From NCBI GenBank assembly GCA_964399775.1, contig CAYNSH010000006.1, positions 3,507 to 67,506 on the forward strand: a stretch of 64,000 nucleotides of DNA, read 5' to 3'. Source of the stretch: an uncultured Verrucomicrobiota bacterium (lineage in GTDB: Bacteria; Verrucomicrobiota; Kiritimatiellia; CAIQIC01; Lenti-01). The position numbers and the translations under genes are program-made. This document shows positions 5,264 to 20,887 of this stretch, in pieces (within the stretch, counting starts at the first letter, position 1; each line of letters opens with the position of its first letter). The notes below the pieces were generated by a model, which was not told the DNA's origin, did not search any database, and was given only the letters and a program-made list of their open reading frames with translations.

Positions 5264-6586
5264 TTATAGCAAAGCGCGGGCGGGTTCTTCAATGAAAGCG
5301 CGGAGGTCGGCCAGGAAGGCGGCGGCCTGGGCGCCATCGATGACGCGGTGGTCGGAGGACAGGGTGGCGTGCAGGATGCGGCGCGGGACGACGGCGCCGT
5401 CGCGCACGACGGACTCCTCGGCCACGGCGCCGAGGGCGAGGATGGCCGAGCCGGGCGGATTGATGATCGCGGTGAACTCCTCGACGCCGTAGGCCCCGAG
5501 GTTGCTGATGGTGAAGCTGGCGCCGGTGTATTCCTCGGGGACGAGGGTGCCGGAGCGGGCCTTGGCGATCAGCGCGCCGAGTTCGGCGTCGATGGCCTCG
5601 ATGCCCTTGGTTTCGCAGGCGCGGACGACGGGGGTGATGAGTCCACCCTCGATGGCCACGGCGAGGCCGATGTCGGCGGAGGGCAGATACTGGATGGCAT
5701 CGCCCTGCCAACTGGCGTTGATGACCGGATGGCGTTCGAGGGCCGCCGCGACCAGCTTGAGGAGGAACGCATTGAGCGAGAGGGACTGCTCGCGGCCCTG
5801 GTTCATGTCCTTGCGCAGGGCGAAGAGGCGTTCCATGTCGATGGCGATGCGCACGAAGTAGTGCGGGGCCTGGGCATAGCTTTCGCTGAGGCGGGAGGCG
5901 ATGATGGCGCGCATCTTGGAGAGCGACACGCGGTCGCCGCGCAACCCCTTGACGGCGGCGCCGGCAACGGGTGGCTTGCCCTTGGCCGCAGGGGTGGCGG
6001 GCCGGGCGGCGGGAACCGGGGCGGGGGCGGCGTGGGCGTTTTCGACGTCGCGGACCGTGATGCGTCCGCCGGGGCCGGTGCCGCGGATGGCGCGGAGATC
6101 GATGCCCTTTTCCTTGGCGCGCTTGCGGGCGAGCGGCGAGGAGCGCGGGACGCCGGGCGCCAATTGGGGCGCGCTTTGCGGTGATGCCACCGGTACGGGT
6201 GCCGGGGGAGGCGGCGGAGCCGAAACCGGCGCGGCTTTTGCGGGAGCAGGCGCGGGCGAGGGTTTAGCTGTCTCGGCGGGAGCGGCGGGAGCCGGAGCCG
6301 GGGCGGTGGCGCTCTTGGCCTGGGCGGCGATGTCTTCCCAGTTGTCGCCGGGCTTGCCGATGACGGCGATGAGCTGGCCGACGGCGGCGGCGGAGCCGGC
6401 CTGAAGGATGATTTTCAGGAGCGTGCCGGAGGCGGGCGACTCGTAGGTCATGGTGGCCTTGTCGGTTTCGACCTCGCAGAGGGCGTCGCCGGACTTGAGG
6501 GCCTGGCCCTCCTGGGCGAGCCACTGGGCGATGGTCCCCTCGGTCATGGTGGGGGACAGGGCGGTCATGAGAATGGGCTCAGCCAT
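5264..6586 (-). CDS. pdhC: Dihydrolipoamide acyltransferase (E2) of a pyruvate/acetoin dehydrogenase complex
   Basis: Lipoyl domain ETDKATM, an Ala/Pro linker, a subunit-binding domain, and the catalytic C-terminus LSSDHRVIDGA. Confidence 0.95.
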   Translation of the reverse strand: MAEPILMTALSPTMTEGTIAQWLAQEGQALKSGDALCEVETDKATMTYESPASGTLLKIILQAGSAAAVGQLIAVIGKPGDNWEDIAAQAKSATAPAPAPAAPAETAKPSPAPAPAKAAPVSAPPPPPAPVPVASPQSAPQLAPGVPRSSPLARKRAKEKGIDLRAIRGTGPGGRITVRDVENAHAAPAPVPAARPATPAAKGKPPVAGAAVKGLRGDRVSLSKMRAIIASRLSESYAQAPHYFVRIAIDMERLFALRKDMNQGREQSLSLNAFLLKLVAAALERHPVINASWQGDAIQYLPSADIGLAVAIEGGLITPVVRACETKGIEAIDAELGALIAKARSGTLVPEEYTGASFTISNLGAYGVEEFTAIINPPGSAILALGAVAEESVVRDGAVVPRRILHATLSSDHRVIDGAQAAAFLADLRAFIEEPARALL

Positions 6587-7571
6587 GGGGGTTCTCCAGA
6601 TAGAGGGCTTTCTTGGCGGCGTTCACGATTTTCTGCACGCTGGGCTGGACGGCGAGTTCCAGCGCGTGGTTGTAGGGCATGGGGACGTCTTCGCTCGAGA
6701 CGAACTCGACCGGGGCATCGAGGAGGTCGAAGCATTCGGTGGCGATGCGGTGGGCGACGTAGGAACCGACGCTCGCGGCGGGCCAGGACTCGTCGACGAC
6801 GACGGCGCGGCCGGTGCGGGCGACGCTGGCCATGAGGGTGTCCTCGTCGAGCGGGCGCAGGCTGCGCAGATCGATCACTTCGGCTTCGATGCCTTCTTTG
6901 GCAAGTTCGGCGGCCGCCTGCAGCAGCAGGTGGACGGGCTTGCTAAAGGAAATGAGCGTGATGTTCTCGCCCGGCCGGAGGATGGCCGCCTTGCCGATGG
7001 GGACGAGAAACTCCTCGTCGGGCACTTCGCCCTTGAAGCCGTAGAGCATTTCCGCTTCGAGGACGACGACGGGGTCGGGATCGCGGATGGCGCTCTTGAG
7101 CAGGCCATAGGCGTCTGCGGGGAAGGCAGGGGCGACGACCTTGATGCCGGGCACGTGGACCCAGTAGCTGGCGAGCGCCTGCGAGTGCTGGCTGGAGAGG
7201 AATTCGGCGGGACCGTTGGGGCCGCGGAAGACGATGGGGACGTTGAACTGTCCGCCGGACATGTGGCGGGTCTTGGCGGCCTCGTTAACGACCTGGTCGA
7301 GGGCCAGCAGCGCGAAGTTGTGGGTCATCCATTCGACGACCGGCTTGAGGCCGACCATGGCGGCACCGACGCCGAGGCCGGTGAACCCCAGTTCGGTGAT
7401 GGGGGTGTCGAGGATTCGCTCGGGGCCGTACTTGCCGAGAAGTCCGCGGGAGACCTTGTAGGCGCCGTCGTATTCGGCGACTTCCTCGCCCATGAGGACG
7501 ACGGCATCGTCCCGGGCCAATTCTTCGTCCAGGGCCCGGTTGAGGGCGTCTCGATAACTCAGCTGCGACAT
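6579..7571 (-). CDS. pdhB: Pyruvate dehydrogenase E1 component beta subunit
   Basis: MSQLSYRDALNRALDEEL...ILDTPITELGFTGLGVGAAM is a typical E1-beta sequence. It overlaps the E2 start by 8 nt. Confidence 0.95.
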   Translation of the reverse strand: MSQLSYRDALNRALDEELARDDAVVLMGEEVAEYDGAYKVSRGLLGKYGPERILDTPITELGFTGLGVGAAMVGLKPVVEWMTHNFALLALDQVVNEAAKTRHMSGGQFNVPIVFRGPNGPAEFLSSQHSQALASYWVHVPGIKVVAPAFPADAYGLLKSAIRDPDPVVVLEAEMLYGFKGEVPDEEFLVPIGKAAILRPGENITLISFSKPVHLLLQAAAELAKEGIEAEVIDLRSLRPLDEDTLMASVARTGRAVVVDESWPAASVGSYVAHRIATECFDLLDAPVEFVSSEDVPMPYNHALELAVQPSVQKIVNAAKKALYLENPHG

Positions 7572-7586
7572 GGTGGCGACTCCTTG

Positions 7587-8588
7587 TCAAACGGGTTGTC
7601 CGGACGGGGCCATGAAGAACGGCTCCCCGGCGTAGATGTCTTCATACAGGGTGTGCAGGGCGGGTTCGGCGGAATTCTCGGCGAATTCCACGGCCTCCTT
7701 GGTGGCCTCTTCGGCGGCGCGGTCCTGGGCTTCGGCCTTGGCGTTGTCCCAGAGCTTTTCCTCCTTCATGCGGGTCTCGAGGATCAGGATGGGGTCCTGC
7801 TTCTTGTATTCGTCCACCTCGTCGCGGGTGCGGTACTTCTGGGGGTCGCTCATGGAGTGGCCCTTGTAGCGGTAGGTGCGAGCCTCGATCAGGACGGGGT
7901 GGCCTTCGCGGGCCTCGGCCAGCGCGCGCAGGGCGGCGTCGCGGACTTCGAGGACATCCATGCCGTCGACCAGTTCGCCGCGCATGCCGTAGGCGGTCGC
8001 CATGATGGAAAAGTCGTCGACGGAGGAGACGCGCTTCCAGCTTGTGCCCATGCCCCATTGGTTGTTTTCGCAGACGGAGACGAGGGGGAGCTTCCAGATC
8101 TTGGCGAGGTTCATGGCCTCGTGGAAGGCACCCTGGTGGATGGCGCCGTCGCCGAAGTAGACGACGGTGGCGCCGCCGGTCTTGCGGTACTTTTGGGCGA
8201 AGGCGACGCCGGCGGCGACGGGGATCTGGGCGCCGACGATGCCGTTGCCGCCAAGGAAATGGCGTTGAGCATCGAACATGTGCATGGAGCCGCCTTTTCC
8301 GCGCGAGCAGCCGGTGACCTTGCCATAGAGCTCGGCCATGATGGCCTTGGGCTCCATGCCGGCGGCGAGGGCATGGCCATGGTCGCGGTAGCCGGTGAGG
8401 ACATAATCCTTGGCATAATCCATGACGCTGGCGAAGCCGGCGGCGATGGCCTCCTGGCCATTGTAGAGGTGGCAGAAGCCGCCGATTTTCCGCAGGCCGT
8501 ACATCTGGCCGGCCTTTTCCTCGAAAACCCGCATCAGGACCATGTCGGCCCGGAGCTTCCAAAGCAGTTCGGCATTCCACTCGCTCAT
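7587..8588 (-). CDS. pdhA: Pyruvate dehydrogenase E1 component alpha subunit
   Basis: The internal Met gives MSEWNAELLWKLRADMVLMRVFEEKAGQMYGLRKIGGFCHLYNGQEA with the TPP motif GDGAIHQGAFHEAMNLA. The upstream part of ORF 7587..8822 is Arg/Pro junk. An SD-like GGAGGTCC precedes the Met. Confidence 0.9.
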   Translation of the reverse strand: MSEWNAELLWKLRADMVLMRVFEEKAGQMYGLRKIGGFCHLYNGQEAIAAGFASVMDYAKDYVLTGYRDHGHALAAGMEPKAIMAELYGKVTGCSRGKGGSMHMFDAQRHFLGGNGIVGAQIPVAAGVAFAQKYRKTGGATVVYFGDGAIHQGAFHEAMNLAKIWKLPLVSVCENNQWGMGTSWKRVSSVDDFSIMATAYGMRGELVDGMDVLEVRDAALRALAEAREGHPVLIEARTYRYKGHSMSDPQKYRTRDEVDEYKKQDPILILETRMKEEKLWDNAKAEAQDRAAEEATKEAVEFAENSAEPALHTLYEDIYAGEPFFMAPSGQPV

Positions 8589-11325: not shown

Positions 11326-12663
11326 ATGGGCGGGCATGTTCACGTCACGGGGGTGGCCGGCGTCGGCATGAGCGCCCTTGCGCAGGCGCTGCGCTGGACC
11401 CACGAGCGCGTGACGGGATCGGACCGCTTCTTCGATCAAGACCCGTCTCTTCCCATCTTTCATGTGCTGCGCGCAGCGGGCGTCGAGATCGTGCCCCAGG
11501 ATGGCCGGGCGATCGATGCCCGTGCCGAAGCCGTGGTCTACAGCACCGCGATCGAAGAGGACAATCCGGATTCCATCGCGGCGCGGAAGCAGGGCGTCCC
11601 CGTGAAGCACCGGGCGGAAATGCTGGCGGAAATGGCGCGGGATCAAACGATCCTGGCGGTGGCCGGTACGGCCGGAAAGACCACCACCGCCGGCATGCTC
11701 GGCTGGATGCTCGAGCAACTGGGGGCGGATCCGACGGTGATCAACGGCGGCGCGCTGGTCGATTGGGCCGGCGCGGCGCAGGTCGGCAACGTGCGCCTTG
11801 GCGGAGAAAACGCCCCGTGGGTGATCGAGGTGGACGAAAGCGATCGCTCGCTGCTGAATTTCCATCCGGAGTGGTCCATTTTGACCAACATCTCGCAGGA
11901 TCATTTTACGCTGGCGGAAGTGCAGGACCTGTTTCGCGCCTACGCGCGCCAGGTGAAGAGGGGCCTGGTCTGCGGCGCGGGGGTGGGGGCGGTTCTGGGT
12001 TCGATTTCGGCCGAGATTCATGAAGTCGCGGCCCGGCCGAGGCAAATGCCCCAAGGCGTGTGCGTGTCGTGGCGCGGCGTGGAATTGACTCTGCGGCAGC
12101 CGGGTCGGCACAACGCGCTCAACGCCGTCTTGGCGGCGGAACTTTGCGCGCGGATGGGCCATGCACCCGAAAAGATCGCCGATGCCCTGTCGCGATTCGG
12201 GGGCATCCAGCGCCGCCTGGAACGGGTGGACGTCGGCGGGCCGGTGCGCGTATTTGACGACTACGCCCACAATCCGGCAAAAATCGCCGCGGCCTGGACG
12301 GCGGTGGCGGAACCCTATCGCCGCGTGCTGGGCGTATGGCGTCCGCATGGCTTTGGCCCCCTGCGCGCGATGCTCGACCCCCTGGCCGAGGCGTTCGCTT
12401 CGGTGTGCCGGCCGGACGACCGGCTCTGGATTTTGCCCGTCTTCGACGCCGGCGGCACCGCCGACCGCTCGATCGGTTCGGAGGCGCTCGTGGCACGGCT
12501 GAAGGCTCTCGGCGTGGCCGCGACCCCCGCCCCCGGATTCGACGAGCTGACCGCTACCCTGTCCGCCGAGGCCCGCCCCGGCGATACCCTCCTCCTCATG
12601 GGCGCCCGCGACCCCCGCCTCCCCGCCTTCGCCCGCCAACTGGGGTCAGGCATTAAGATTTAA
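11326..12663 (+). CDS. Mur ligase family protein, MurC-like paralogue
   Basis: VTGVAGVGMSALAQAL, P-loop AVAGTAGKTTTAGMLGWML, VIEVDESDRS, TNISQDHF, GRHNALNAV and DDYAHNPAKI together show MurC-type spacing. A canonical murC also exists at 35771. The last 7 codons and the stop lie inside the 55-bp palindrome. Confidence 0.8.
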   Translation: MGGHVHVTGVAGVGMSALAQALRWTHERVTGSDRFFDQDPSLPIFHVLRAAGVEIVPQDGRAIDARAEAVVYSTAIEEDNPDSIAARKQGVPVKHRAEMLAEMARDQTILAVAGTAGKTTTAGMLGWMLEQLGADPTVINGGALVDWAGAAQVGNVRLGGENAPWVIEVDESDRSLLNFHPEWSILTNISQDHFTLAEVQDLFRAYARQVKRGLVCGAGVGAVLGSISAEIHEVAARPRQMPQGVCVSWRGVELTLRQPGRHNALNAVLAAELCARMGHAPEKIADALSRFGGIQRRLERVDVGGPVRVFDDYAHNPAKIAAAWTAVAEPYRRVLGVWRPHGFGPLRAMLDPLAEAFASVCRPDDRLWILPVFDAGGTADRSIGSEALVARLKALGVAATPAPGFDELTATLSAEARPGDTLLLMGARDPRLPAFARQLGSGIKI

Positions 12664-12696
12664 GATTTGAAATCTTAAATCTTAATGCCTGACCCC
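12642..12696. repeat. Perfect 55-bp palindrome (27-bp arms) GGGGTCAGGCATTAAGATTTAAGATTT-g-AAATCTTAAATCTTAATGCCTGACCCC; probable terminator / REP-like element
   Basis: The arms are exact reverse complements. The core is AT-rich in GC-rich DNA and contains the tandem heptamer TAAGATT x2. The outer GGGGTCAG...CTGACCCC matches the ends of the IRs flanking the RAYT at 60.1 kb. Confidence 0.85.
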
Positions 12697-12767
12697 GACC
12701 TTCATAAAACGGGCTTGACGGCCCGGGAACTATTCTGTATTGCGTAATACATGATGCGGAGTAGTTC

Positions 12768-13109
12768 ATGATCGAGGGCTGGATCACCCAGTTGCGCAAG
12801 GGGCTGCTGGAGTACTGCGTGCTGCTGGTGCTGCGCCGGGGGGAGAGCTACGGCTATGAGATCGTGCAGGCCCTGAAGCGGATCGAGGACTTGTCGGTTT
12901 CGGAGAGCACGGTCTATCCGATCCTGGGACGGTTGCGCGAGGAGGGCTGCCTGAAATCGCGCGACAAGCCGTCGGACGCGGGGCCGCCGCGCCGCTATTT
13001 TTCGCTGACGCCGCGGGGCAAGGTGCGCCTGGCGGAGATGAACGCGTATTGGCCGATGTTGACGAAGGCGCTGGATGAGTTGAAATCCGGAACGGGGAAG
13101 GAAGCATAA
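12768..13109 (+). CDS. PadR family transcriptional regulator
   Basis: LRKGLLEYCVLLVLRRGESYGYEIVQAL...SESTVYPILGRLREEGCL...RRYFSLTPRG is a canonical PadR winged helix. Confidence 0.9.
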   Translation: MIEGWITQLRKGLLEYCVLLVLRRGESYGYEIVQALKRIEDLSVSESTVYPILGRLREEGCLKSRDKPSDAGPPRRYFSLTPRGKVRLAEMNAYWPMLTKALDELKSGTGKEA

Positions 13110-13112
13110 CAC

Positions 13113-16100
13113 ATGAAGTGGAGCCGTGAGGTGGAGCAGCGGGTCGAGGCGTACCTGCGCGAGGTGGAGCAACGGTTGGCGCACAAGCCGGCGGCCGTGC
13201 GGCAGGAGGTGGTGTCCGGGCTGCGCGACCACATCGCCGAGGCGATGAACCGCGCGCGGGAAAAGGGCGAGGAGGGGTTGCATGTCGCCGAGCGCATCCT
13301 GGCGGAGATGGATCCGCCGGAAACGTTCGCGGAAGCCGCGGCGGAAGTGGCCCTGGGCGCGACCGCGGAACTGGCGCCGGATGTGGAGAAAATCACCGCG
13401 AGGCACTGGTTCGCGCTGGCCGTGGCGTTCCTGCTGGTGAACGCCTACGGCGTCTGGCGCTGGACGTCGCATTTGCCGCCGCGCCCCATCGCGACCGCCG
13501 AGGCGTCTGCCGCGGGCGGGGAGGAACAGGTGTACGATCGCGTGCTGCGCCTGCGCCGGATGGAGCAGGTGGATGTCTCGCCGGAGCGCGAACTGGTGCT
13601 GCGCCTGACGTTCAGCGACCGGCCGGACCGCGAGCAGTTGACGCGCCATCTGAAACTGTCGGCGCCGGGGCAGGGAAAGGTGGACTACCGGCTCATGGGC
13701 GCGGCCGGTCCCAACACCCTGCTGGTCCGCACGGAGTCGGTGCGGTCGGACAAACTGGAATACGCGCTTGCCGCGGGCATGCCCTCGGCGGGGGAGTCGC
13801 GGGTCACGGACAAGACCGAGACCGGTTCGCTGGCGATGCAGATGAATATCCTGCTGCGACGGGTCGAGGCGGAAAGTCCCTCGTTCGATCCGCCCTCGCT
13901 GATTGCCGACTTCAATGCCGCGGCGGACCTGTCCAAGGCGGCGGATTATATTACGATCGAGCCGGAGGTGTCGTTCACGGTGGCGCCGACGCATCGCTGG
14001 CGGTGGGATGGCGTGCGCTTGAACGGGGACTTCCAGCCGGGGGGAATCTATACCGTCACGTTCAAAGAGGGCTTGCCGGCGGCGAACGGGTCCAGCCTGC
14101 CGCAGGATGCGACCCGGACGGTTCATTTTCCGCCGCGCGGGAGGGCGGTGCGCCTGGATTCACCCGGGCGCTACCTGGCGCCCGGAGGCGCGTTGGCCGT
14201 GCCGGTGCTGACCGCGGGGCTGGAGCGTTACGAGGCGCGCCTGAGCCCGGTGATGCCCAACAATCTGGTGCATCTGGCGCTGCGCGAGTCGGGCCGCCTG
14301 AGCTACTGGGGCGGAGCCACGGCCTATCTGACCGGAACCGGCCGCGCGCAAACCAACGCGCTGAAGCGGATGCCGGATGGCTCGCCGACGCCGGCCACGG
14401 TGGCTTTGCGCTCGCTGACAGACGGCGATCCGCGCGGGGTCTATTGGCTGGAGGTGGGGGGCGAGAAGGCCTCGGGCGACAGCCGGCTGCTGGTGGTCTC
14501 GGATCTCGGACTGGCGGCGCGGGTGGATGCCGCCGGCCTGTTGGCATGGGTGAACGAATTGGGGACGGCCGAACCGGTCGCCGGCGCCGTCCTCACGGTT
14601 TTCGCAAACAACAACCAGGTGCTGGCGCGCGGCGAAACCGACGAACACGGTCTCGCCCGGCTCGCGTTGCCCAAGGGGGAGGAGCCGTTCCTTGTGTTGG
14701 CCGAGTCCGCCGGCGATTGGACCTACATTGATTTGGACCGCACGCGCGTGCACCAGGGCGAAGGACTCGAGGGCGTGCCCTATCTGGACGAGGGCCGGAT
14801 CGAGGCAGCGGTCTTCACCGAGCGCGGCGTGTACCGCCCCGGGGAGACCGTGTTTGTCCAGGCGATCGCGCGCAACGACCAGATGCAGGCGCCGCCGCCC
14901 TTCCCGGGGCTGTTGCGCGTGCGCCGCCCCGATGGCCGGATATTCCGCGACATCCCCGTGGAACTGGATGAAGCCGGCTCCGCGACGACCGAGGTCGTGC
15001 TGCCCGAATACCTGCCGACGGGTCGCTATGAATTGGAACTGGCCATGCCGGGCACCCATACGGTGCTGGGCCGGACGAGGGTCTCCATGGAAGACTTCGT
15101 GCCGCCGCAAATCCGCGCCGATGTGGATCCGCCCGAGGGCCGCTTCCGCGCGGGCGACGTCCTCCTGTTCCGGGTGCGCGGCGCGCATCTCTTCGGCGGC
15201 CCCGCCAGCGGTCTGCGGGTCAACGCGGGCGCGACGTTCACGCCCGAGCCCTTCGCCCCGGCCCGCTGGCGAGGCTGGCGTTTCGGCGATGCCGAAAAGA
15301 GCTTTGAGCCGATCGATGTCCAGGTGGGCGCCGGACGGCTGGATGCGGACGGGGCGGGGCAGTTTGACGTGGATACGCGCAAGGCCTGGCGGCCGCCGGC
15401 GGCGCTGAAGGTGCTCCTGCGCGCCACGGTGGTGGAAGCCAGTGGCCGCAGCATGTCGGCCTATGGCTCGGCGCTGATCGATCCCTATCCGTTTTACGTG
15501 GGGATGAAGCCCTCGTGGAACGGGGCGGTGCGCGTGGGCGAAACGCAGCGCGTCGCGGTGGTGCAGGTCGCGCCCGACGGCGAACCCGTCGCCACGGGGA
15601 AACCCCTGGTGTTGACCCTGTCGCGGGTGGCGTGGAATTCCGTGCTGCGCCAGAATCACCGCGGTCGCTACGAATGGGTGTCCGAGCGCGAGGTGATCGA
15701 ACTGCGCAGTGATACGCTGGCGGCCGGCGGGGAGCCGATGGATTGGGAATTCACGGTGGATGGCCCCGGCGACTACATGCTGCTGGCGGCGGACCCCGCT
15801 TCGGGCGCGGCGACGCGGCTATCGTTCCATGCGGCCTCGACCGACCCCTCCTGGGCGGCGTGGAGCCGCGAGAAACCCGGCGTGGTCGAATTGGCCTGGG
15901 ACCGCGACCGCTACCGTCCGGGCGACACGGCCCGCCTGCAGGTGCGCGCGCCCTTCGCCGGCCAGGCGTTGCTGACGATCGAAACCGACCGCGTGCGCGA
16001 GGCGCGAGTCGTCACGCTCGAAAAAAACACCGCCGAGCTCGACATTGCGGTGGAGGAATCGTACTTCCCCAACGCGTGGTGCACGCTGACGATGATCCGT

Positions 16101-18521
16101 CCGGCTCGGGCCGCGGCGGTCTGGAGCGCGCACCGAGCCATTGGCGCCATCGCCCTGCCGGTGGACCGCCCCGAAACCGTCGTGCAGGTCGCGCTGGATG
16201 CGCCCACCCGCATTCGTCCGCAGTCGCCGCTGGCCGGCACGGTCCGTGTCCGCCACGCCGACGGCTCGCCCGCCGCCGGTCGGGTCACGGTGATGGCCGT
16301 GGACGAAGGCATCTGCCTGTTGACCGGCTTCCCGACCCCGGACCCGATGCGGATCTTTGCCGCCCGCCGCGCGCTGGGCGTCAGCGCCTTCGATCTCTAT
16401 GCCGAGCTGATGCCGATTGTCGAGGAATTGCTCGAAAGCGCGCCCGCGCCCGGCGGCGATGGCGAGGGCATGATGCGCGGCCGGTTGAACCCCATCAAGG
16501 CGAACCGCTTCAAGCCGGTTGCGCTCTGGGCGGCCTCCCTGCCGCTGGATGAAAACGGGCGGGCCGCCTTCCATTTGGATGTGCCCGAGTTCAGCGGCGA
16601 ACTGCGCCTGATGGCGGTGGCCTACAACGACCGCCAGACGGGCTCGGCCTCCATGCCCGTTACGGTGAAGCGCGATCTGGTGGTGCAGCCCGCCCTGCCG
16701 CGGTTCCTGGCGATCGGCGACCAGGCCGAAGCGGCCATTCCCCTCCATAACGGCAGCGGGGAGACGCTCTCGGCAATCGTGCGTGCCACCTGCGGCGGCC
16801 CGCTGCGCGCCGAAGTCGCCGAGACACGGGTGGAGATTGCCGCCGGGCAATCCGTCCAAGTAGCCCTGCCGCTGACGGCCGGTCCTGGCCCCGGCAAGGC
16901 GTTGTGCACCATCGAAGTCGTGGCCGGCGAAGAGACCTATCGCGAAACCATCGAACTGGCGGTGCGTCCGGCGGCGGGATTGCGCGTGGAAACCGCGCTG
17001 CGCGTCCTGGCTCCCGGCGAAAGAGCCACCTTTGACGCTCCGGCCGGCTGGCTGCCCGAAGCGTTGATGGTCTCGGGCGGACTCTCCCCCATGCCCTCCG
17101 TGCAGATGGGACGCGCGCTCGACTACGTGGTTCACTATCCCTACGGCTGCCTCGAACAGACCGTATCCGGCGCGTTTCCGCTGCTCTTCGCCGGCGAGTG
17201 GGTCGGGCGGCTTTTGCCGTCGGAGCAGGCCATCGGCGAGATCTCGGCGTGGGTTCCCGCGGCGATCTCGCGCGTGTTCTCGATGCAGCAGGAAGGCGGC
17301 GGCTTTGCGCTGTGGCCGTTCTCGACGGGCACCGGCGAAGAGGTCTCGGCCTATGCGCTGCATTTCCTGGTCGAAGCCGGCGCCGCCGGATTCGATGTGC
17401 CCGCCGGGCCCCTCGATGCCGCGCTCGGCTGGGCGCGCGGACGCCTCGACCGTTCCATCTCGCCCGACACCTCCGAACAGGACTGGACCCGCGAAATGCA
17501 GCTCCGCGCCTACCTCTGCCACATTCTCGCCCTGGCGGGGCGGCCCGATGCCGGCTGGGCGGCGCGCCTGCGCGAGCAGTCCGACCGCCTGAATCCTGCT
17601 GCGCGCGTGCATGTCGCCTCCGCGCTGCTGATCGCCGGCGAACCGCGCCAGGCGGTTGACCTGCTCGAAACCCTGGCCCCGCCGCCGCCGCGCGAACGCC
17701 AGCCCAGCCAACTGCTGGACAGCGATATTCGCGATGCCGCACTGCTGCTTGCCGCCTGGCTCGACATCGAGCCGGAGAATCCCGCCGTGGTGCAATTGGC
17801 CCAGACGTTGCGAGATCGGCAGCGCGACGGGCATTGGGGCAATACGCAGGACAACGCCATGGCGCTGCTCGCCTTCGGCAAGCTGGCCAGCCGACTCCCC
17901 GACGAAGAACAGCCCGTGGCCGGCGAACTCGTCCTGCCCAACGGGCGTACGCAGTCGTTTTCCGGCACCAACGACGTGACCTGGTCGCTGGGTCCCGGCG
18001 AGGGGGGCCCGGTCACGGTTCGCAACGACGGCCCCGGAAGGCTCTATCTATGGGTCCGCCACGAAGGCGTTGCGCTCACGCCCGAAGAGCCGTCAGCCCG
18101 GGGCGTCGCCATCGAACGCGAGTTGTTGGATTTGGCCGGGAATTCCGCGGATCCCGCCCGCCTGTCGCAGGGGGAGATGTTCGTGGTGCGGTTGAGCGTG
18201 GACCCGCGCGGCGGGGCCCTCGACCACCTGGTCATCGAAGACCTCCTGCCGGCGGGGCTGGAGATCGAGAATCCGAATCTCGCCGCCTCGCAGCAGGTCA
18301 CCTGGCTGCAGCGGCGCGAGGAAAACGACCGCTATCGCGACGCGCGCGACGACCGCATGCTGATATTCACCGGCCATCTGTCCGAGAAGACCGTCTATCA
18401 CTACGCGGTGCGGGCGGTCACGCCCGGCGTCTTCGCCCTGCCGCCGGTCGTCGTCTCCGGCATGTACCAGCCCGAAATCCGCGGGGTCGGCGCCGGCGGA
18501 GAAGTGCGCGTGGTGCCGTGA
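13113..18521 (+). CDS. Bacterial alpha-2-macroglobulin family protein with an N-terminal DUF1700/HAAS-like domain and TM anchor
   Basis: 1802 aa with the thioester motif GCLEQ at 17148..17159 (HYPYGCLEQTVSG) and many MG-domain-like repeats. The N-terminal 80 aa (VEAYLREVEQRL...VVSGLRDHIAEAM...ILAEMDPPETFAEAA) look like DUF1700. TM segment HWFALAVAFLLVNAYGVWRW lies near 13395..13454. Confidence 0.9.
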   Translation: MKWSREVEQRVEAYLREVEQRLAHKPAAVRQEVVSGLRDHIAEAMNRAREKGEEGLHVAERILAEMDPPETFAEAAAEVALGATAELAPDVEKITARHWFALAVAFLLVNAYGVWRWTSHLPPRPIATAEASAAGGEEQVYDRVLRLRRMEQVDVSPERELVLRLTFSDRPDREQLTRHLKLSAPGQGKVDYRLMGAAGPNTLLVRTESVRSDKLEYALAAGMPSAGESRVTDKTETGSLAMQMNILLRRVEAESPSFDPPSLIADFNAAADLSKAADYITIEPEVSFTVAPTHRWRWDGVRLNGDFQPGGIYTVTFKEGLPAANGSSLPQDATRTVHFPPRGRAVRLDSPGRYLAPGGALAVPVLTAGLERYEARLSPVMPNNLVHLALRESGRLSYWGGATAYLTGTGRAQTNALKRMPDGSPTPATVALRSLTDGDPRGVYWLEVGGEKASGDSRLLVVSDLGLAARVDAAGLLAWVNELGTAEPVAGAVLTVFANNNQVLARGETDEHGLARLALPKGEEPFLVLAESAGDWTYIDLDRTRVHQGEGLEGVPYLDEGRIEAAVFTERGVYRPGETVFVQAIARNDQMQAPPPFPGLLRVRRPDGRIFRDIPVELDEAGSATTEVVLPEYLPTGRYELELAMPGTHTVLGRTRVSMEDFVPPQIRADVDPPEGRFRAGDVLLFRVRGAHLFGGPASGLRVNAGATFTPEPFAPARWRGWRFGDAEKSFEPIDVQVGAGRLDADGAGQFDVDTRKAWRPPAALKVLLRATVVEASGRSMSAYGSALIDPYPFYVGMKPSWNGAVRVGETQRVAVVQVAPDGEPVATGKPLVLTLSRVAWNSVLRQNHRGRYEWVSEREVIELRSDTLAAGGEPMDWEFTVDGPGDYMLLAADPASGAATRLSFHAASTDPSWAAWSREKPGVVELAWDRDRYRPGDTARLQVRAPFAGQALLTIETDRVREARVVTLEKNTAELDIAVEESYFPNAWCTLTMIRPARAAAVWSAHRAIGAIALPVDRPETVVQVALDAPTRIRPQSPLAGTVRVRHADGSPAAGRVTVMAVDEGICLLTGFPTPDPMRIFAARRALGVSAFDLYAELMPIVEELLESAPAPGGDGEGMMRGRLNPIKANRFKPVALWAASLPLDENGRAAFHLDVPEFSGELRLMAVAYNDRQTGSASMPVTVKRDLVVQPALPRFLAIGDQAEAAIPLHNGSGETLSAIVRATCGGPLRAEVAETRVEIAAGQSVQVALPLTAGPGPGKALCTIEVVAGEETYRETIELAVRPAAGLRVETALRVLAPGERATFDAPAGWLPEALMVSGGLSPMPSVQMGRALDYVVHYPYGCLEQTVSGAFPLLFAGEWVGRLLPSEQAIGEISAWVPAAISRVFSMQQEGGGFALWPFSTGTGEEVSAYALHFLVEAGAAGFDVPAGPLDAALGWARGRLDRSISPDTSEQDWTREMQLRAYLCHILALAGRPDAGWAARLREQSDRLNPAARVHVASALLIAGEPRQAVDLLETLAPPPPRERQPSQLLDSDIRDAALLLAAWLDIEPENPAVVQLAQTLRDRQRDGHWGNTQDNAMALLAFGKLASRLPDEEQPVAGELVLPNGRTQSFSGTNDVTWSLGPGEGGPVTVRNDGPGRLYLWVRHEGVALTPEEPSARGVAIERELLDLAGNSADPARLSQGEMFVVRLSVDPRGGALDHLVIEDLLPAGLEIENPNLAASQQVTWLQRREENDRYRDARDDRMLIFTGHLSEKTVYHYAVRAVTPGVFALPPVVVSGMYQPEIRGVGAGGEVRVVP

Positions 18522-20887
18522 ACGAGCCGTTGGACTGGAGCCGGGACGCCCCCGTGCCGGATGGTGATGGATTGAAAACCACCCGACGAGGGCGTCGGGT
18601 CTCCAAAACCCGATGGAAGTGGGACGCTCCGGATGGTTTCGGATGGACATTCGCCCGATGGAGCCGGGACGCCCCCGTGCCGCCGCGGCTTCGCATCCCC
18701 ATTCTGCTCTTCCTCCTGCTGGTTCTTCTCCCCGGGGCGTTCTGGGCGGCGCTGCGCTGGGTGCCATTTCCCGACGAGGCGCTGGCGCATCTGCCCGTAT
18801 CCGTGGTGCTGGCCGATCGGCATGGCGAGCCGTTACGGGTGCGTCTGGGCGCGGGGGGATTCGACTGCCGCCCCGGCTACGTGCCGGATCCCGAGGACTG
18901 GATCGTCCAGGCGCTGGTCGCCGCCGAGGACCGCCGCTTCTGGGATCACGCCGGCGTGGACCCGCTGGCCTTGCTGCGCGCCGTCGGCCAGAACCTGCTC
19001 CATGGCCGCCGCATTTCCGGGGCCTCGACCCTCTCGACCCAGGTCATCCGCATGGCCCAACCGCGCCGCCGCACCCTGTCCACGAAAGCCATCGAAGCCT
19101 TCCGCGCCTTTCAAATGGAACGCCGCTACGACAAGCGCCACATCCTGGCGCACTATCTCGATCGCGCCCCCTTTGGCGGCAACATCGTGGGCATCGAGGC
19201 GGCCGCCCAGCGCTATTTTGGCAGAAATGCCGCCGAGCTGAGCCTGGCCGAAGCCGCGCTGCTGGCCGGCCTGCCGCAGTCGCCCTCGCGCCTGCGTCCC
19301 GACCGTCATCCCGAACGCGCCAAGCGCCGCCAGGCCTACGTGCTCGACCGCATGGAAGCCTGCGGATTCATCACCGCCCGCCAGCGGCGCGACGCGCTGG
19401 CCCAGCCCCTCGATCCGCGCCCCGGGGTCTATCCCTTCCGCGCCCCGCACTTCTGCGATCTGGTCGGCGTGCCTGCACCGCCCTCCGCCGGCGGCGCGGT
19501 GCGGACCACGCTGGATTCCGGCCTCCAGAGCCTGGCCGAAGAAACCCTCCGCCGCCGGCTGGGCAGCCTCGCCGCCAACGGCGGGGCGGTCGTGGTGATC
19601 GAAGTGGCCACGGGAGCGGTGCGCGCGCTCGTTGGATCCCCCGACTACGCCGATCCGCGGGCCGGGCAGGTCAACGGCGCCATTGCCCCGCGCGCCGCCG
19701 GTTCCACCCTCAAGCCCTTCGCCTACGCCCTGGCCATGGACCGCGGCCTCGTCACGCCCGCCACCCAGTTGGCCGACGTACCCCTGCGCTTCCGCGACTT
19801 TGATCCGCGCAACTTCTCGCTCGATTTCCGCGGACTGGTCGGCACACGCGAGGCCCTGGTCCTCTCCCTGAACCTGCCCGCGATCGAGATTCACCGCCGC
19901 GTTGGACAGGAACGCCTCCTTGCCACCCTGCGCGACCTGGGGCTGACGACTCTCGACCGGACCCCCGATCATTATGGCATCGGGTTGGTGCTGGGCGGCG
20001 CGGAGGTGCGCCTGCTCGAACTCGCCAACGCCTATGCCGCGCTGGCGCGCCGGGGCGATTGGGCGCCGTTGCGCTTTGTCGAATCCGCCGCGCCGCCTTC
20101 CACCCGTCCGGTGTTCTCGCCCGAAGCCGCCTGGCTGGTCGGCGACATCCTCTCCGGCGACGAACGCGCCATGGATGCCACCGGGCATGCCGCCGACGTG
20201 CGCCTGCCCGTCATGGCCTGGAAGACCGGCACCTCCGCGGGGTTGCGCGATGCCTGGACCGTGGCCTGGAATCCCGACGTGGTGATTGGCGTTTGGGTGG
20301 GCAACGCCGACGGCACCGCCTCCGATGGGCTGGTGGGTCGGCTGGCGGCGACACCCGTCGCCTGGGATCTCGCCCGCCGGCTCTATCCCGGCAACGTCGG
20401 CCCCGCTTTCGCCCGGCCGCCGGGCATCGTGCCGCGCGAGGCCTGCCTCGCCAGCGGCTGCGTGCCCGGACCGCATTGCGCCCACCGCACGGAGGACTGG
20501 GCCATTGCGCGGGTGTCGCGCCACGATCCCTGCCCGGTGCACCGCCACGGCCCGGAACCCGTCTGGCCCACGGCTGTCGCCGCCTTCTTCAACCGCCGCG
20601 CCGCGCCGGCCGAAGAAACCCCGTCCGCCTCCCTGCGCATCCTGTCGCCTGCGCGCGGCAGCGTCTTCCGCCAGATGCCCGATGACGAAACCACCTGGCA
20701 GCGCCTGGCGCTCGACGCCGCCACCGACCGCGCCAACGAGACGTTGCATTGGTTCGTCAACGATCGCCCCGTGGGGCAGTCCCGCTCCGGCCAGCCCCTG
20801 TTCTGGCCCCTGGAACCCGGCACCCACCAGATCGTTTGCGCCACCCCCCGCGGCCTCAGCGACCGCATCCAAATCGCCGTGGAGTGA
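18518..20887 (+). CDS. pbpC: Penicillin-binding protein 1C (bifunctional transglycosylase/transpeptidase)
   Basis: GT51 motifs EDRRFWDHAGVD and GASTLSTQ, transpeptidase GSTLKPF, and a C-terminal PbpC-specific domain (HWFVNDRPVG...HQIVCATPRG). Start is uncertain: GTG 18518 (GTGA overlap with the A2M stop) or GTG 18677 (giving MPPRLRIPILLF... just before the TM helix). There is no in-frame ATG. Confidence 0.85.
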   Translation: MNEPLDWSRDAPVPDGDGLKTTRRGRRVSKTRWKWDAPDGFGWTFARWSRDAPVPPRLRIPILLFLLLVLLPGAFWAALRWVPFPDEALAHLPVSVVLADRHGEPLRVRLGAGGFDCRPGYVPDPEDWIVQALVAAEDRRFWDHAGVDPLALLRAVGQNLLHGRRISGASTLSTQVIRMAQPRRRTLSTKAIEAFRAFQMERRYDKRHILAHYLDRAPFGGNIVGIEAAAQRYFGRNAAELSLAEAALLAGLPQSPSRLRPDRHPERAKRRQAYVLDRMEACGFITARQRRDALAQPLDPRPGVYPFRAPHFCDLVGVPAPPSAGGAVRTTLDSGLQSLAEETLRRRLGSLAANGGAVVVIEVATGAVRALVGSPDYADPRAGQVNGAIAPRAAGSTLKPFAYALAMDRGLVTPATQLADVPLRFRDFDPRNFSLDFRGLVGTREALVLSLNLPAIEIHRRVGQERLLATLRDLGLTTLDRTPDHYGIGLVLGGAEVRLLELANAYAALARRGDWAPLRFVESAAPPSTRPVFSPEAAWLVGDILSGDERAMDATGHAADVRLPVMAWKTGTSAGLRDAWTVAWNPDVVIGVWVGNADGTASDGLVGRLAATPVAWDLARRLYPGNVGPAFARPPGIVPREACLASGCVPGPHCAHRTEDWAIARVSRHDPCPVHRHGPEPVWPTAVAAFFNRRAAPAEETPSASLRILSPARGSVFRQMPDDETTWQRLALDAATDRANETLHWFVNDRPVGQSRSGQPLFWPLEPGTHQIVCATPRGLSDRIQIAVE
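18536..18559. repeat. 24-nt direct repeat TGGAGCCGGGACGCCCCCGTGCCG (copy 1 of 2; copy 2 at 18659..18682)
   Basis: Exact duplicate 123 bp downstream. Each copy contains GGAG and an in-frame GTG relative to pbpC. Confidence 0.85.

Follow-up and report, generated by a model that had tools for sequence, protein, structure and literature searches.

The padR-a2m-pbpC cassette

Open reading frames (ORFs) were read across a 64-kb window, the whole 64,000-nucleotide stretch of contig CAYNSH010000006.1 from an uncultured Verrucomicrobiota bacterium. This reading identified three co-directional genes, padR-a2m-pbpC, at positions 12768-20887. The first encodes a PadR-family repressor, the second an alpha-2-macroglobulin (A2M) that begins with a HAAS domain and a transmembrane (TM) helix, and the third penicillin-binding protein 1C (PBP1C, also PbpC). 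The padR stop codon and the ATG of the A2M gene are separated by 3 nt (CAC), and the two genes share a reading frame. The features of the locus are collected in Table 1. An earlier reading of the locus, made from the letters and their ORFs alone (the sequence-only reading), had placed a canonical padR gene 3 nt ahead of an A2M gene, and this gene was recovered at the same ORF coordinates.

Table 1. Features of the padR-a2m-pbpC locus (positions in the 64-kb window)
Feature	Position	Strand	Description
Inverted repeat	12642..12696	.	27-nt arms, 1-nt gap; 100% complementary; overlaps the stop codon of the Mur-ligase gene
Promoter-like blocks	12715..12736	+	TTGACG (12715-12720) and T/A-rich box TATTCT (12731-12736)
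Candidate PadR operator	12737..12764	+	Three half-sites; consensus [CG]TAnnnCG[CT]A
padR	12768..13109	+	113 aa; single-domain PadR-family winged-helix repressor; stop TAA 13107-13109
HAAS::TM::alpha-2-macroglobulin gene	13113..18521	+	1802 aa; ATG start at 13113
HAAS domain	13149..13337	+	Residues 13-75; PF22564; predicted cytoplasmic
Single transmembrane helix	13398..13469	+	Residues 96-119; W115 invariant, N110 invariant or nearly so
Two Ig-like (MG0/NIE/MG1-like) periplasmic domains	13545..14063	+	Residues ~145-317; AlphaFold2 pLDDT above 90
Bait-region domain	15888..16322	+	Residues 926-1070; PF07703 A2M_BRD, E 6.7e-16
Thioester motif CLEQ, intact	17148..17159	+	Residues 1346-1349
pbpC (penicillin-binding protein 1C)	18518..20887	+	Start is GTG 18518 or GTG 18677
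In-frame 123-nt duplication	18537..18681	+	Exact 22-nt direct repeats GGAGCCGGGACGCCCCCGTGCC at 18537-18558 and 18660-18681

In a family profile search, the PadR protein matched PF03551 with an E value of 7.8e-21. Profile and structure alignments place it among the ~110-aa winged-helix PadR proteins with a C-terminal dimerisation helix, and the nearest solved structures on full-length alignment (5h20, 4esf, 3hhh and 6abq) are all PadR proteins of about that length. The product of the third gene passed the TIGR02073 PBP_1c model (614 bits against a cut-off of 494) and carries Transgly, Transpeptidase and BiPBP_C domains, bearing out the coupling of the A2M to PbpC that the sequence-only reading had reported.

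HAAS domain and membrane anchor of the A2M

The same reading had likened the N terminus of the A2M to a HAAS module, and a profile search now identifies it as such. Residues 13-75 matched PF22564 HAAS over the full length of the model (positions 1-55 of 55; E 6.8e-10, 39.6 bits, cut-off 27), and the same match is precomputed for most relatives of this A2M. In family alignments of the HAAS region, Y14, D67 and P69 (MDxPE motif) were invariant, and R30 and L37 were invariant or nearly so. An AlphaFold2 model of residues 1-330, built with 45 homologues (mean predicted local distance difference test score [pLDDT] 87), predicts HAAS helices at residues 5-21, 27-50 and 56-65 with a pLDDT above 90 and a weaker helix at 71-84. 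The helix break falls at the invariant D67-x-P69 (MDPPE), with a further helix after it, so that a DxP stands here against the GxP motif at which the third helix of the three-helix HAAS core is kinked by definition. A Foldseek search with this model gave no informative match for the HAAS part, and a sequence search of residues 1-125 against PDB chains gave no meaningful match.

The first 97 residues of the A2M are charged and helical, and the sole hydrophobic segment among the N-terminal 130 residues is HWFALAVAFLLVNAYGVWRW, at residues 98-117. The model predicts disorder at residues 80-94, a helix at 96-119, and disorder at 120-143, followed by two immunoglobulin (Ig)-like domains. The window A2M has neither an N-terminal signal peptide or hydrophobic stretch nor a lipobox cysteine; no cysteine follows its TM segment, and one lies near the segment in 3 of 80 relatives. 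Because the hydrophobic segment begins about 97 residues in, behind a folded domain, it is best read as an internal signal-anchor and not as a cleavable signal peptide, in agreement with the single TM helix that had been predicted from sequence and that hydrophobicity and AlphaFold2 both support. The domain order is HAAS (13-75), TM helix (96-119) and periplasmic body, with HAAS N-terminal of the membrane part. Since there is a single helix and the body is homologous to periplasmic A2Ms, we infer an N-in/C-out topology, with HAAS in the cytoplasm and the body in the periplasm.

The body of the protein is that of an A2M. Profile searches matched bMG3, MG2, bMG5, bMG6, A2M_BRD, A2M and bMG10, and residues 307-1797 aligned end-to-end to Salmonella A2M (4u48) and E. 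coli YfhM/ECAM (4rtd, 4ziq) with E values of about 1e-100. When the model of residues 1-330 was searched with Foldseek, generic tandem Ig folds dominated, and the MG0-NIE-MG1 fragment of ECAM (4zjg) stood at rank 5. The thioester that had been noted at 17148-59 is intact (CLEQ), and the motif is kept in essentially all members of the family, in which the bait region is conserved as well.

Conservation of the fusion and of its linkage to padR

All of the evidence presented here is comparative, and every organism in the comparison is known only from a metagenome-assembled genome, some with taxonomic labels that are clearly unreliable. Proteins of 1790-1930 aa that are 40-72% identical to the window A2M form about 80 clusters at 90% identity. 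All of these begin with HAAS and a TM helix, and all carry the TM motif RWFxLxxAFLLVNxYGVWKW. The nearest A2Ms outside this fused family are at most 33% identical to the window protein and start with a conventional signal or anchor sequence. A phmmer search with residues 1-125 against 1.84 billion representatives returned 89 matches, with about 15 clusters at 50% identity above 1700 aa, and one fused subgroup is a 2303-aa form carrying extra Ig domains.

Among species-representative genomes, the TM pattern was present in 38 loci. padR lay directly upstream in all 33 of the HAAS-A2M loci with upstream DNA, and pbpC lay directly downstream in most of the fused loci, though not in a few such as L036 and L038. 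Neighbouring genes of the cassette share 1-4 nt in relatives, and in the window padR and the A2M gene have a gap of 3 nt. A survey based on PadR found relatives in 196 genomes, of which 80 loci were examined, 77 of them with downstream DNA. In all 77, a HAAS-domain ORF came next: 59 were HAAS::A2M fusions, 15 were small stand-alone HAAS proteins, and 3 were cut by contig ends. At least 59 species-representative genomes carry the fusion, and these are labelled Kiritimatiellia, Lentisphaerae or Verrucomicrobiae apart from a few labels that were taken as mis-binned. Thus, the co-occurrence of padR and HAAS is strict, and the padR adjacency on which the sequence-only reading had relied is conserved whichever of the two genes the survey starts from. 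The stand-alone HAAS proteins (157-710 aa) come mostly from Planctomycetes, Chloroflexi and Armatimonadota, and the 15 cases agree with the earlier statement that this module is elsewhere a separate membrane protein next to PadR. Because PadR proteins of this subfamily are also found with stand-alone HAAS proteins in other phyla, the PadR-HAAS module is older than the fusion, and the fusion is derived.

PadR is the most conserved protein of the cassette, with 60-94% identity against 34-68% for HAAS; among the 80 genome loci its identity ranged from 54 to 94%. This conservation would fit a dual constraint from DNA and partner binding, although high conservation is common among small DNA-binding proteins in any case.

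Two relatives, L042 and L044, have the TM helix after a tail of about 10 residues and retain pbpC, with neither HAAS nor padR. The absence of both from these loci indicates that HAAS and padR were gained or lost together. A signalling role for the conserved Asn and Trp of the TM helix was considered and rejected, the same helix being present in these HAAS-less, padR-less loci. Retention of the helix even without HAAS may point to a partner in the membrane, for example a second copy of the helix (self-association) or the anchor of PbpC. In L042, genes for an OmpR-type response regulator and a HAMP/HisKA histidine kinase lie directly upstream of the A2M gene in the same orientation (5275-8132). 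This two-component system in the usual place of padR is a single case and may be coincidence.

Flanking genes differed among genomes, even for identical PadR proteins; therefore, the conserved unit is the three-gene cassette. In L045, L046 and L047 (9001-16945 in each), an identical PadR (P0180, found in 530 blocks of the collection) with A2M and pbpC occurs in three entirely different contexts, one of which adjoins a DDE transposase gene. Such varied contexts may reflect rearrangement or mobility of the cassette. In L055, L066 and L106, the last on a 1.4-Mb contig, the HAAS::A2M ORF is broken by frameshifts or truncation, which may represent pseudogenisation or sequencing error. L106 was considered as an unfused intermediate with separate HAAS and A2M genes and was rejected, the frameshift lying within the first Ig-like region of a fused gene.

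The nearest HAAS proteins that are not A2Ms are also single-pass. They carry leucine-rich repeat (LRR_5) and Big_5 domains in L050 (986-4020) and a NosD-like beta-helix in L051 (4672-8582). In both, an upstream padR overlaps the HAAS gene by 4 nt, and the operon holds no other genes. These modules suggest a wider pattern, with one large extracytoplasmic protein serving at once as the regulated product and as the partner of its regulator.

A candidate PadR operator

Upstream regions of padR were unrelated among genomes apart from one block, the only conserved non-coding one. It consists of CTTGAC, about 10 variable bases, TATTAT, GTATTGCGTAATAC, ATGA and then TGCGGAGTAG, and stops a few bases short of the start codon. 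Of the half-sites in the window, GTATTGCGTA (12737-12746) and TGCGTAATAC (12741-12750) make up a palindrome, and a third, TGCGGAGTAG (12755-12764), shares bases with the Shine-Dalgarno sequence GGAG. The palindrome, 16 nt long, is unique in the 64-kb window, and no second operator copy, second padR gene or second HAAS gene was found elsewhere in it. When distant PadR loci were added, the repeat unit resolved to a 10-nt half-site arranged in inverted repeats, often as two tandem palindromes.

Across 88 distinct regions, each the 100 nt upstream of padR, half-sites reached a density of 21.1 per kb, as compared with 0.099 per kb in the remaining ~1.2 Mb of the loci, an enrichment of about 200-fold that is partly circular, since the pattern was derived from part of the same sequences, and that holds in distant phyla unused in its definition. 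A stricter half-site pattern was matched upstream of padR alone, in 28 loci.

A consensus scan upstream of padR found no canonical sigma-70 promoter. The TTGACG and TATTCT blocks are 10 nt apart, and a 17-nt spacing would put the -10 element at TATTGC, inside the operator. Either way, the operator-like site would overlap the promoter or the start of the transcript, where an autorepressor is expected to bind.

Relation to known systems

The window A2M shares with class-1 bacterial A2Ms (E. coli YfhM/ECAM-PbpC and Salmonella Sa-A2M) the macroglobulin (MG) domain series, the bait-region domain, the CLEQ thioester and the MG10 domain, and in both cases pbpC is immediately downstream. An inner-membrane-tethered periplasmic location is probably common to both, and the window protein is a putative protease trap. 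Identity to ECAM is low, and HAAS-less A2Ms come no nearer than 33%. The two differ in their attachment: class-1 A2Ms are lipoproteins (PMC3735191), whereas the window A2M, lacking signal peptide and lipobox, is anchored by a TM helix behind a 95-residue HAAS region. Compared with class-1 A2Ms, the window cassette also adds a dedicated repressor gene to the operon.

The other half of the cassette resembles HAAS-PadR pairs. Comparative genomics led to the proposal that these pairs are an alternative to two-component systems and that HAAS passes a signal from fused domains to PadR (PMC11237479). In Listeria, PadR repressors encoded beside DUF1700/DUF1048 proteins autorepress their own operons (PMC6624303, PMC4517056). 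The Listeria pairs LltR-Lmo0600, LstR-Lmo0421 and LftR-LftS (PMC6624303, PMC4517056) have the arrangement seen here, with a PadR of about 110 aa encoded directly upstream of a gene for HAAS and membrane segments. Like the PadR proteins of these systems, the window PadR is probably autorepressing through an inverted-repeat operator. A peptidoglycan synthase is among the outputs of the window cassette, which may be compared with the control by LstR of an FtsW/RodA homologue that PMC11237479 lists as a HAAS fusion.

The HAAS partners described in PMC11237479 are either multi-TM (PspC, LiaF, FtsX, FtsW/RodA, VanZ) or intracellular (Toastrack, pentapeptide repeats). Unlike these fusions, the window HAAS is joined to a single TM helix and a 1700-residue periplasmic thioester protein. 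Neither the text of PMC11237479 nor one supplementary file mentions A2M or macroglobulin, and single-pass HAAS proteins with large extracytoplasmic domains (LRR, beta-helix) are a class not listed there. A literature search for an A2M-HAAS/PadR fusion found no description of one, and database protein names were generic.

A macroglobulin held at the inner membrane by protein is known from Pseudomonas MagD, a class-2 macroglobulin that lacks the thioester cysteine and is encoded in the six-gene magABCDEF operon (PMC3735191). As in the window, the hold is by a protein TM segment and not by lipid, and for MagD it is provided in trans, probably via MagB (PMC3735191). The window protein differs from MagD in having its anchor in cis and its thioester intact, and the MagD operon has neither pbpC nor padR.

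Anti-sigma/ECF (extracytoplasmic function) sigma pairs and the BlaR1/MecR1-BlaI/MecI systems are likewise single-pass, with a sensor outside and cytoplasmic control of an adjacently encoded regulator. The external sensor of BlaR1 undergoes an irreversible covalent modification, and the same would be true of a thioester trap. These systems have no homology to the window proteins, and HAAS has neither a protease nor an anti-sigma fold.

A probable self-regulating operon

Collectively, these data suggest, with a probability that we put at roughly 0.7, that padR-a2m-pbpC is a PadR-repressed, self-regulating operon in which the cytoplasmic HAAS tail of the A2M is the partner of PadR. In the proposed mechanism, a PadR dimer would bind the half-site array at 12737-12764, at the promoter or 5' end of its own operon, and repress it. 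The A2M would be inserted N-in/C-out, with HAAS in the cytoplasm and the MG domains, bait region and thioester in the periplasm, and would be placed at the inner membrane like the lipoprotein ECAM, but anchored by a helix. The HAAS tail would bind PadR and modulate repression. Because the main product of the operon carries the PadR partner on its cytoplasmic end, the output of trap and PBP1C would then be set by the amount or state of the trap itself. In the version that we prefer, a replenishment loop, A2M would be consumed, cleaved or clustered after entry of proteases, the hold of HAAS on PadR would be altered, and the operon would be de-repressed. The architecture, the co-occurrence, the operator-like element and the gene order enter this scheme as observations; the topology, the binding of PadR by HAAS, the sense in which regulation runs and the kind of signal are what we infer.

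Several points weigh against this scheme. A repressor partner under the control of that same repressor is a feedback loop, the sign of which is not derivable from sequence. We know of no experimental demonstration of PadR-HAAS binding for any HAAS family, this one included, and the Listeria genetics establish functional linkage of PadR and HAAS-type partners only. The positive-inside bias is weak, with 2.44 K/R residues on the N-side of the helix and 1.88 on the C-side, and the promoter hexamers misfit sigma-70 spacing. In the family alignment, both linkers flanking the TM helix were variable in length and sequence, and both are predicted to be disordered. The HAAS-to-TM linker is 7-34 aa long with 17% identity and is rich in Ala, Gly, Pro and Ser, and the TM-to-Ig linker is 16-78 aa long with 11% identity and is rich in Pro and Ala; a change in the periplasm would be hard to pass to HAAS across them. 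The TM helix is the best-conserved segment of the N-terminal region (69% identity), and its presence in the HAAS-less L042 and L044 speaks against it as a signalling feature. The flexible linkers argue against a rigid or simple conformational relay. No rigid transmission is needed if A2M molecules cluster once they have reacted, if proteolysis removes the periplasmic part, or if the tail simply titrates PadR.

Alternative explanations

The A2M could itself be a sensor, in which bait cleavage and thioester reaction would cause a conformational change that travels via the TM helix and leads HAAS to capture or release PadR. The bait region and CLEQ thioester are intact family-wide, and the nearest non-A2M HAAS proteins bear typical extracytoplasmic binding modules, LRR and beta-helix. 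In addition, bacterial macroglobulins shift conformation on reacting with protease or methylamine (PMC3735191), and HAAS domains have been proposed to change conformation with fused sensor domains (PMC11237479). However, a single helix between two disordered, variable tethers of 11-17% identity would be a poor conduit, and the thioester domain lies more than 1200 residues away from the anchor; we regard this explanation as doubtful. The fullest form of it, in which the A2M is a transmembrane protease-attack receptor, a single-use trap that reports its own consumption via HAAS to PadR and so induces fresh trap and a cell-wall repair synthase, is offered as a tentative suggestion. The sequence-only reading had likewise proposed a signalling circuit from the A2M to PadR. 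Its architecture and its coupling to PadR are well supported, and the candidate operator adds autoregulation to it; the relay of a protease-attack or conformational state is a hypothesis, and the linkers speak against a rigid form of it.

The same flexible linkers are compatible with a mere tether, as would be expected if HAAS-TM senses the membrane or envelope, or reports copy number, and the A2M is cargo or output. The fusion would then ensure 1:1 coupling, giving dosage control or feedback, or a membrane-stress response like that of Lia/Psp. HAAS first came to light in connection with membrane stress, alongside PspC, LiaF and Toastrack (PMC11237479). Moreover, in Planctomycetes, Chloroflexi and Armatimonadota the partners of this PadR subfamily are small HAAS proteins of 157-363 aa, with a minimal extracytoplasmic portion or none at all, and the LRR and beta-helix operons consist of padR and the HAAS protein alone, so that the HAAS protein is the regulated product. 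This account is about as doubtful as the sensor explanation: it leaves unexplained why fusion and not adjacency has been kept in at least 3 classes, down to about 37% A2M identity, and if a constitutive PadR partner were itself controlled by PadR and not gated by some signal, expression would run away or become locked. Regulated proteolysis would dispense with conformational transmission through the helix altogether. An invading or housekeeping site-1 protease would cut the periplasmic linker, which is long, exposed, disordered and Pro/Ala-rich, or the reacted A2M, and the HAAS-TM stub would be degraded or released, changing the availability of PadR. RseA/sigma-E, RsiV and BlaR1/BlaI are analogues, and in BlaR1/BlaI the covalent modification of an external sensor ends in the loss of a winged-helix repressor. 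This explanation is unlikely: no site-2 or other protease gene is linked to the cassette, whose neighbours differ in every genome, and a repressor freed from a destroyed tether would raise repression unless PadR were degraded too. An artefact, whether a mis-called start, frameshift, assembly error or long signal-anchor with a chance resemblance to HAAS and no connection to PadR, could be suspected from the few frameshifted copies (L055, L066, L106) and from the tendency of charged helical segments to yield spurious profile matches. About 80 independent clusters share the same continuous ORF, and at least 59 genomes carry it; this, the full-model HAAS match above the curated cut-off, and the joint presence or joint absence of HAAS and padR effectively refute an artefact.

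Other features of the locus

In the window, a Mur ligase gene lies upstream of the cassette and prs-rplY-pth lie downstream. The genome is about 65% GC, against which the inverted repeat ahead of the promoter-like blocks stands out as AT-rich. This repeat is unique in the window and was not conserved at related loci. It delimits the cassette on the upstream side and may act as a terminator or insulator. In L034 and L036 the equivalent position is taken by a different repeat, of the AACTTGAAACTTG type.

The sequence-only reading had described an overlap (GTGA) of the A2M stop codon with a GTG of pbpC. This overlap is present in the sequence (GTG 18518), but the start of pbpC in the window is ambiguous because of the in-frame 123-nt duplication at its 5' end. 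The unique part of the duplication contains a hairpin, CCCGACG-AGGG-CGTCGGG, and similarity to other PbpC proteins starts only past the duplication. The duplication or insertion would either add 41 residues to the cytoplasmic tail of PbpC or leave GTG 18677 as the true start. In relatives, the A2M stop and the pbpC start share a 4-nt overlap, which supports the overlapping start as the ancestral arrangement.

Implications

The cassette is a fusion of two known modules, of the Rosetta-stone type, conserved across at least 3 classes of one superphylum; it is not a new kind of system. Bacterial A2Ms are thought to guard the periplasm, together with PBP1C, against proteases that enter after damage to the outer membrane. 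To our knowledge, the regulation of bacterial A2M-PBP1C systems is largely unknown, and we know of no defined input signal for any HAAS-PadR pair. The cassette ties the A2M-PBP1C pair to a dedicated repressor through a domain borne by the A2M itself and gives a handle on when the system is switched on. Since the chemistry that triggers A2Ms is well understood (bait cleavage, methylamine), the stimulus of a HAAS-PadR pair could here be applied on purpose.

These findings add to the known HAAS architectures a set of single-pass proteins, those with A2M, LRR and beta-helix, whose periplasmic parts are very large, and make A2Ms that are anchored by a TM helix, and not as lipoproteins, the rule in one branch of the Verrucomicrobiota-group phyla. 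If the receptor explanation were true, the cassette would be a bacterial counterpart of danger sensing by thioester proteins and would provide the first defined input signal of a HAAS-PadR pair.

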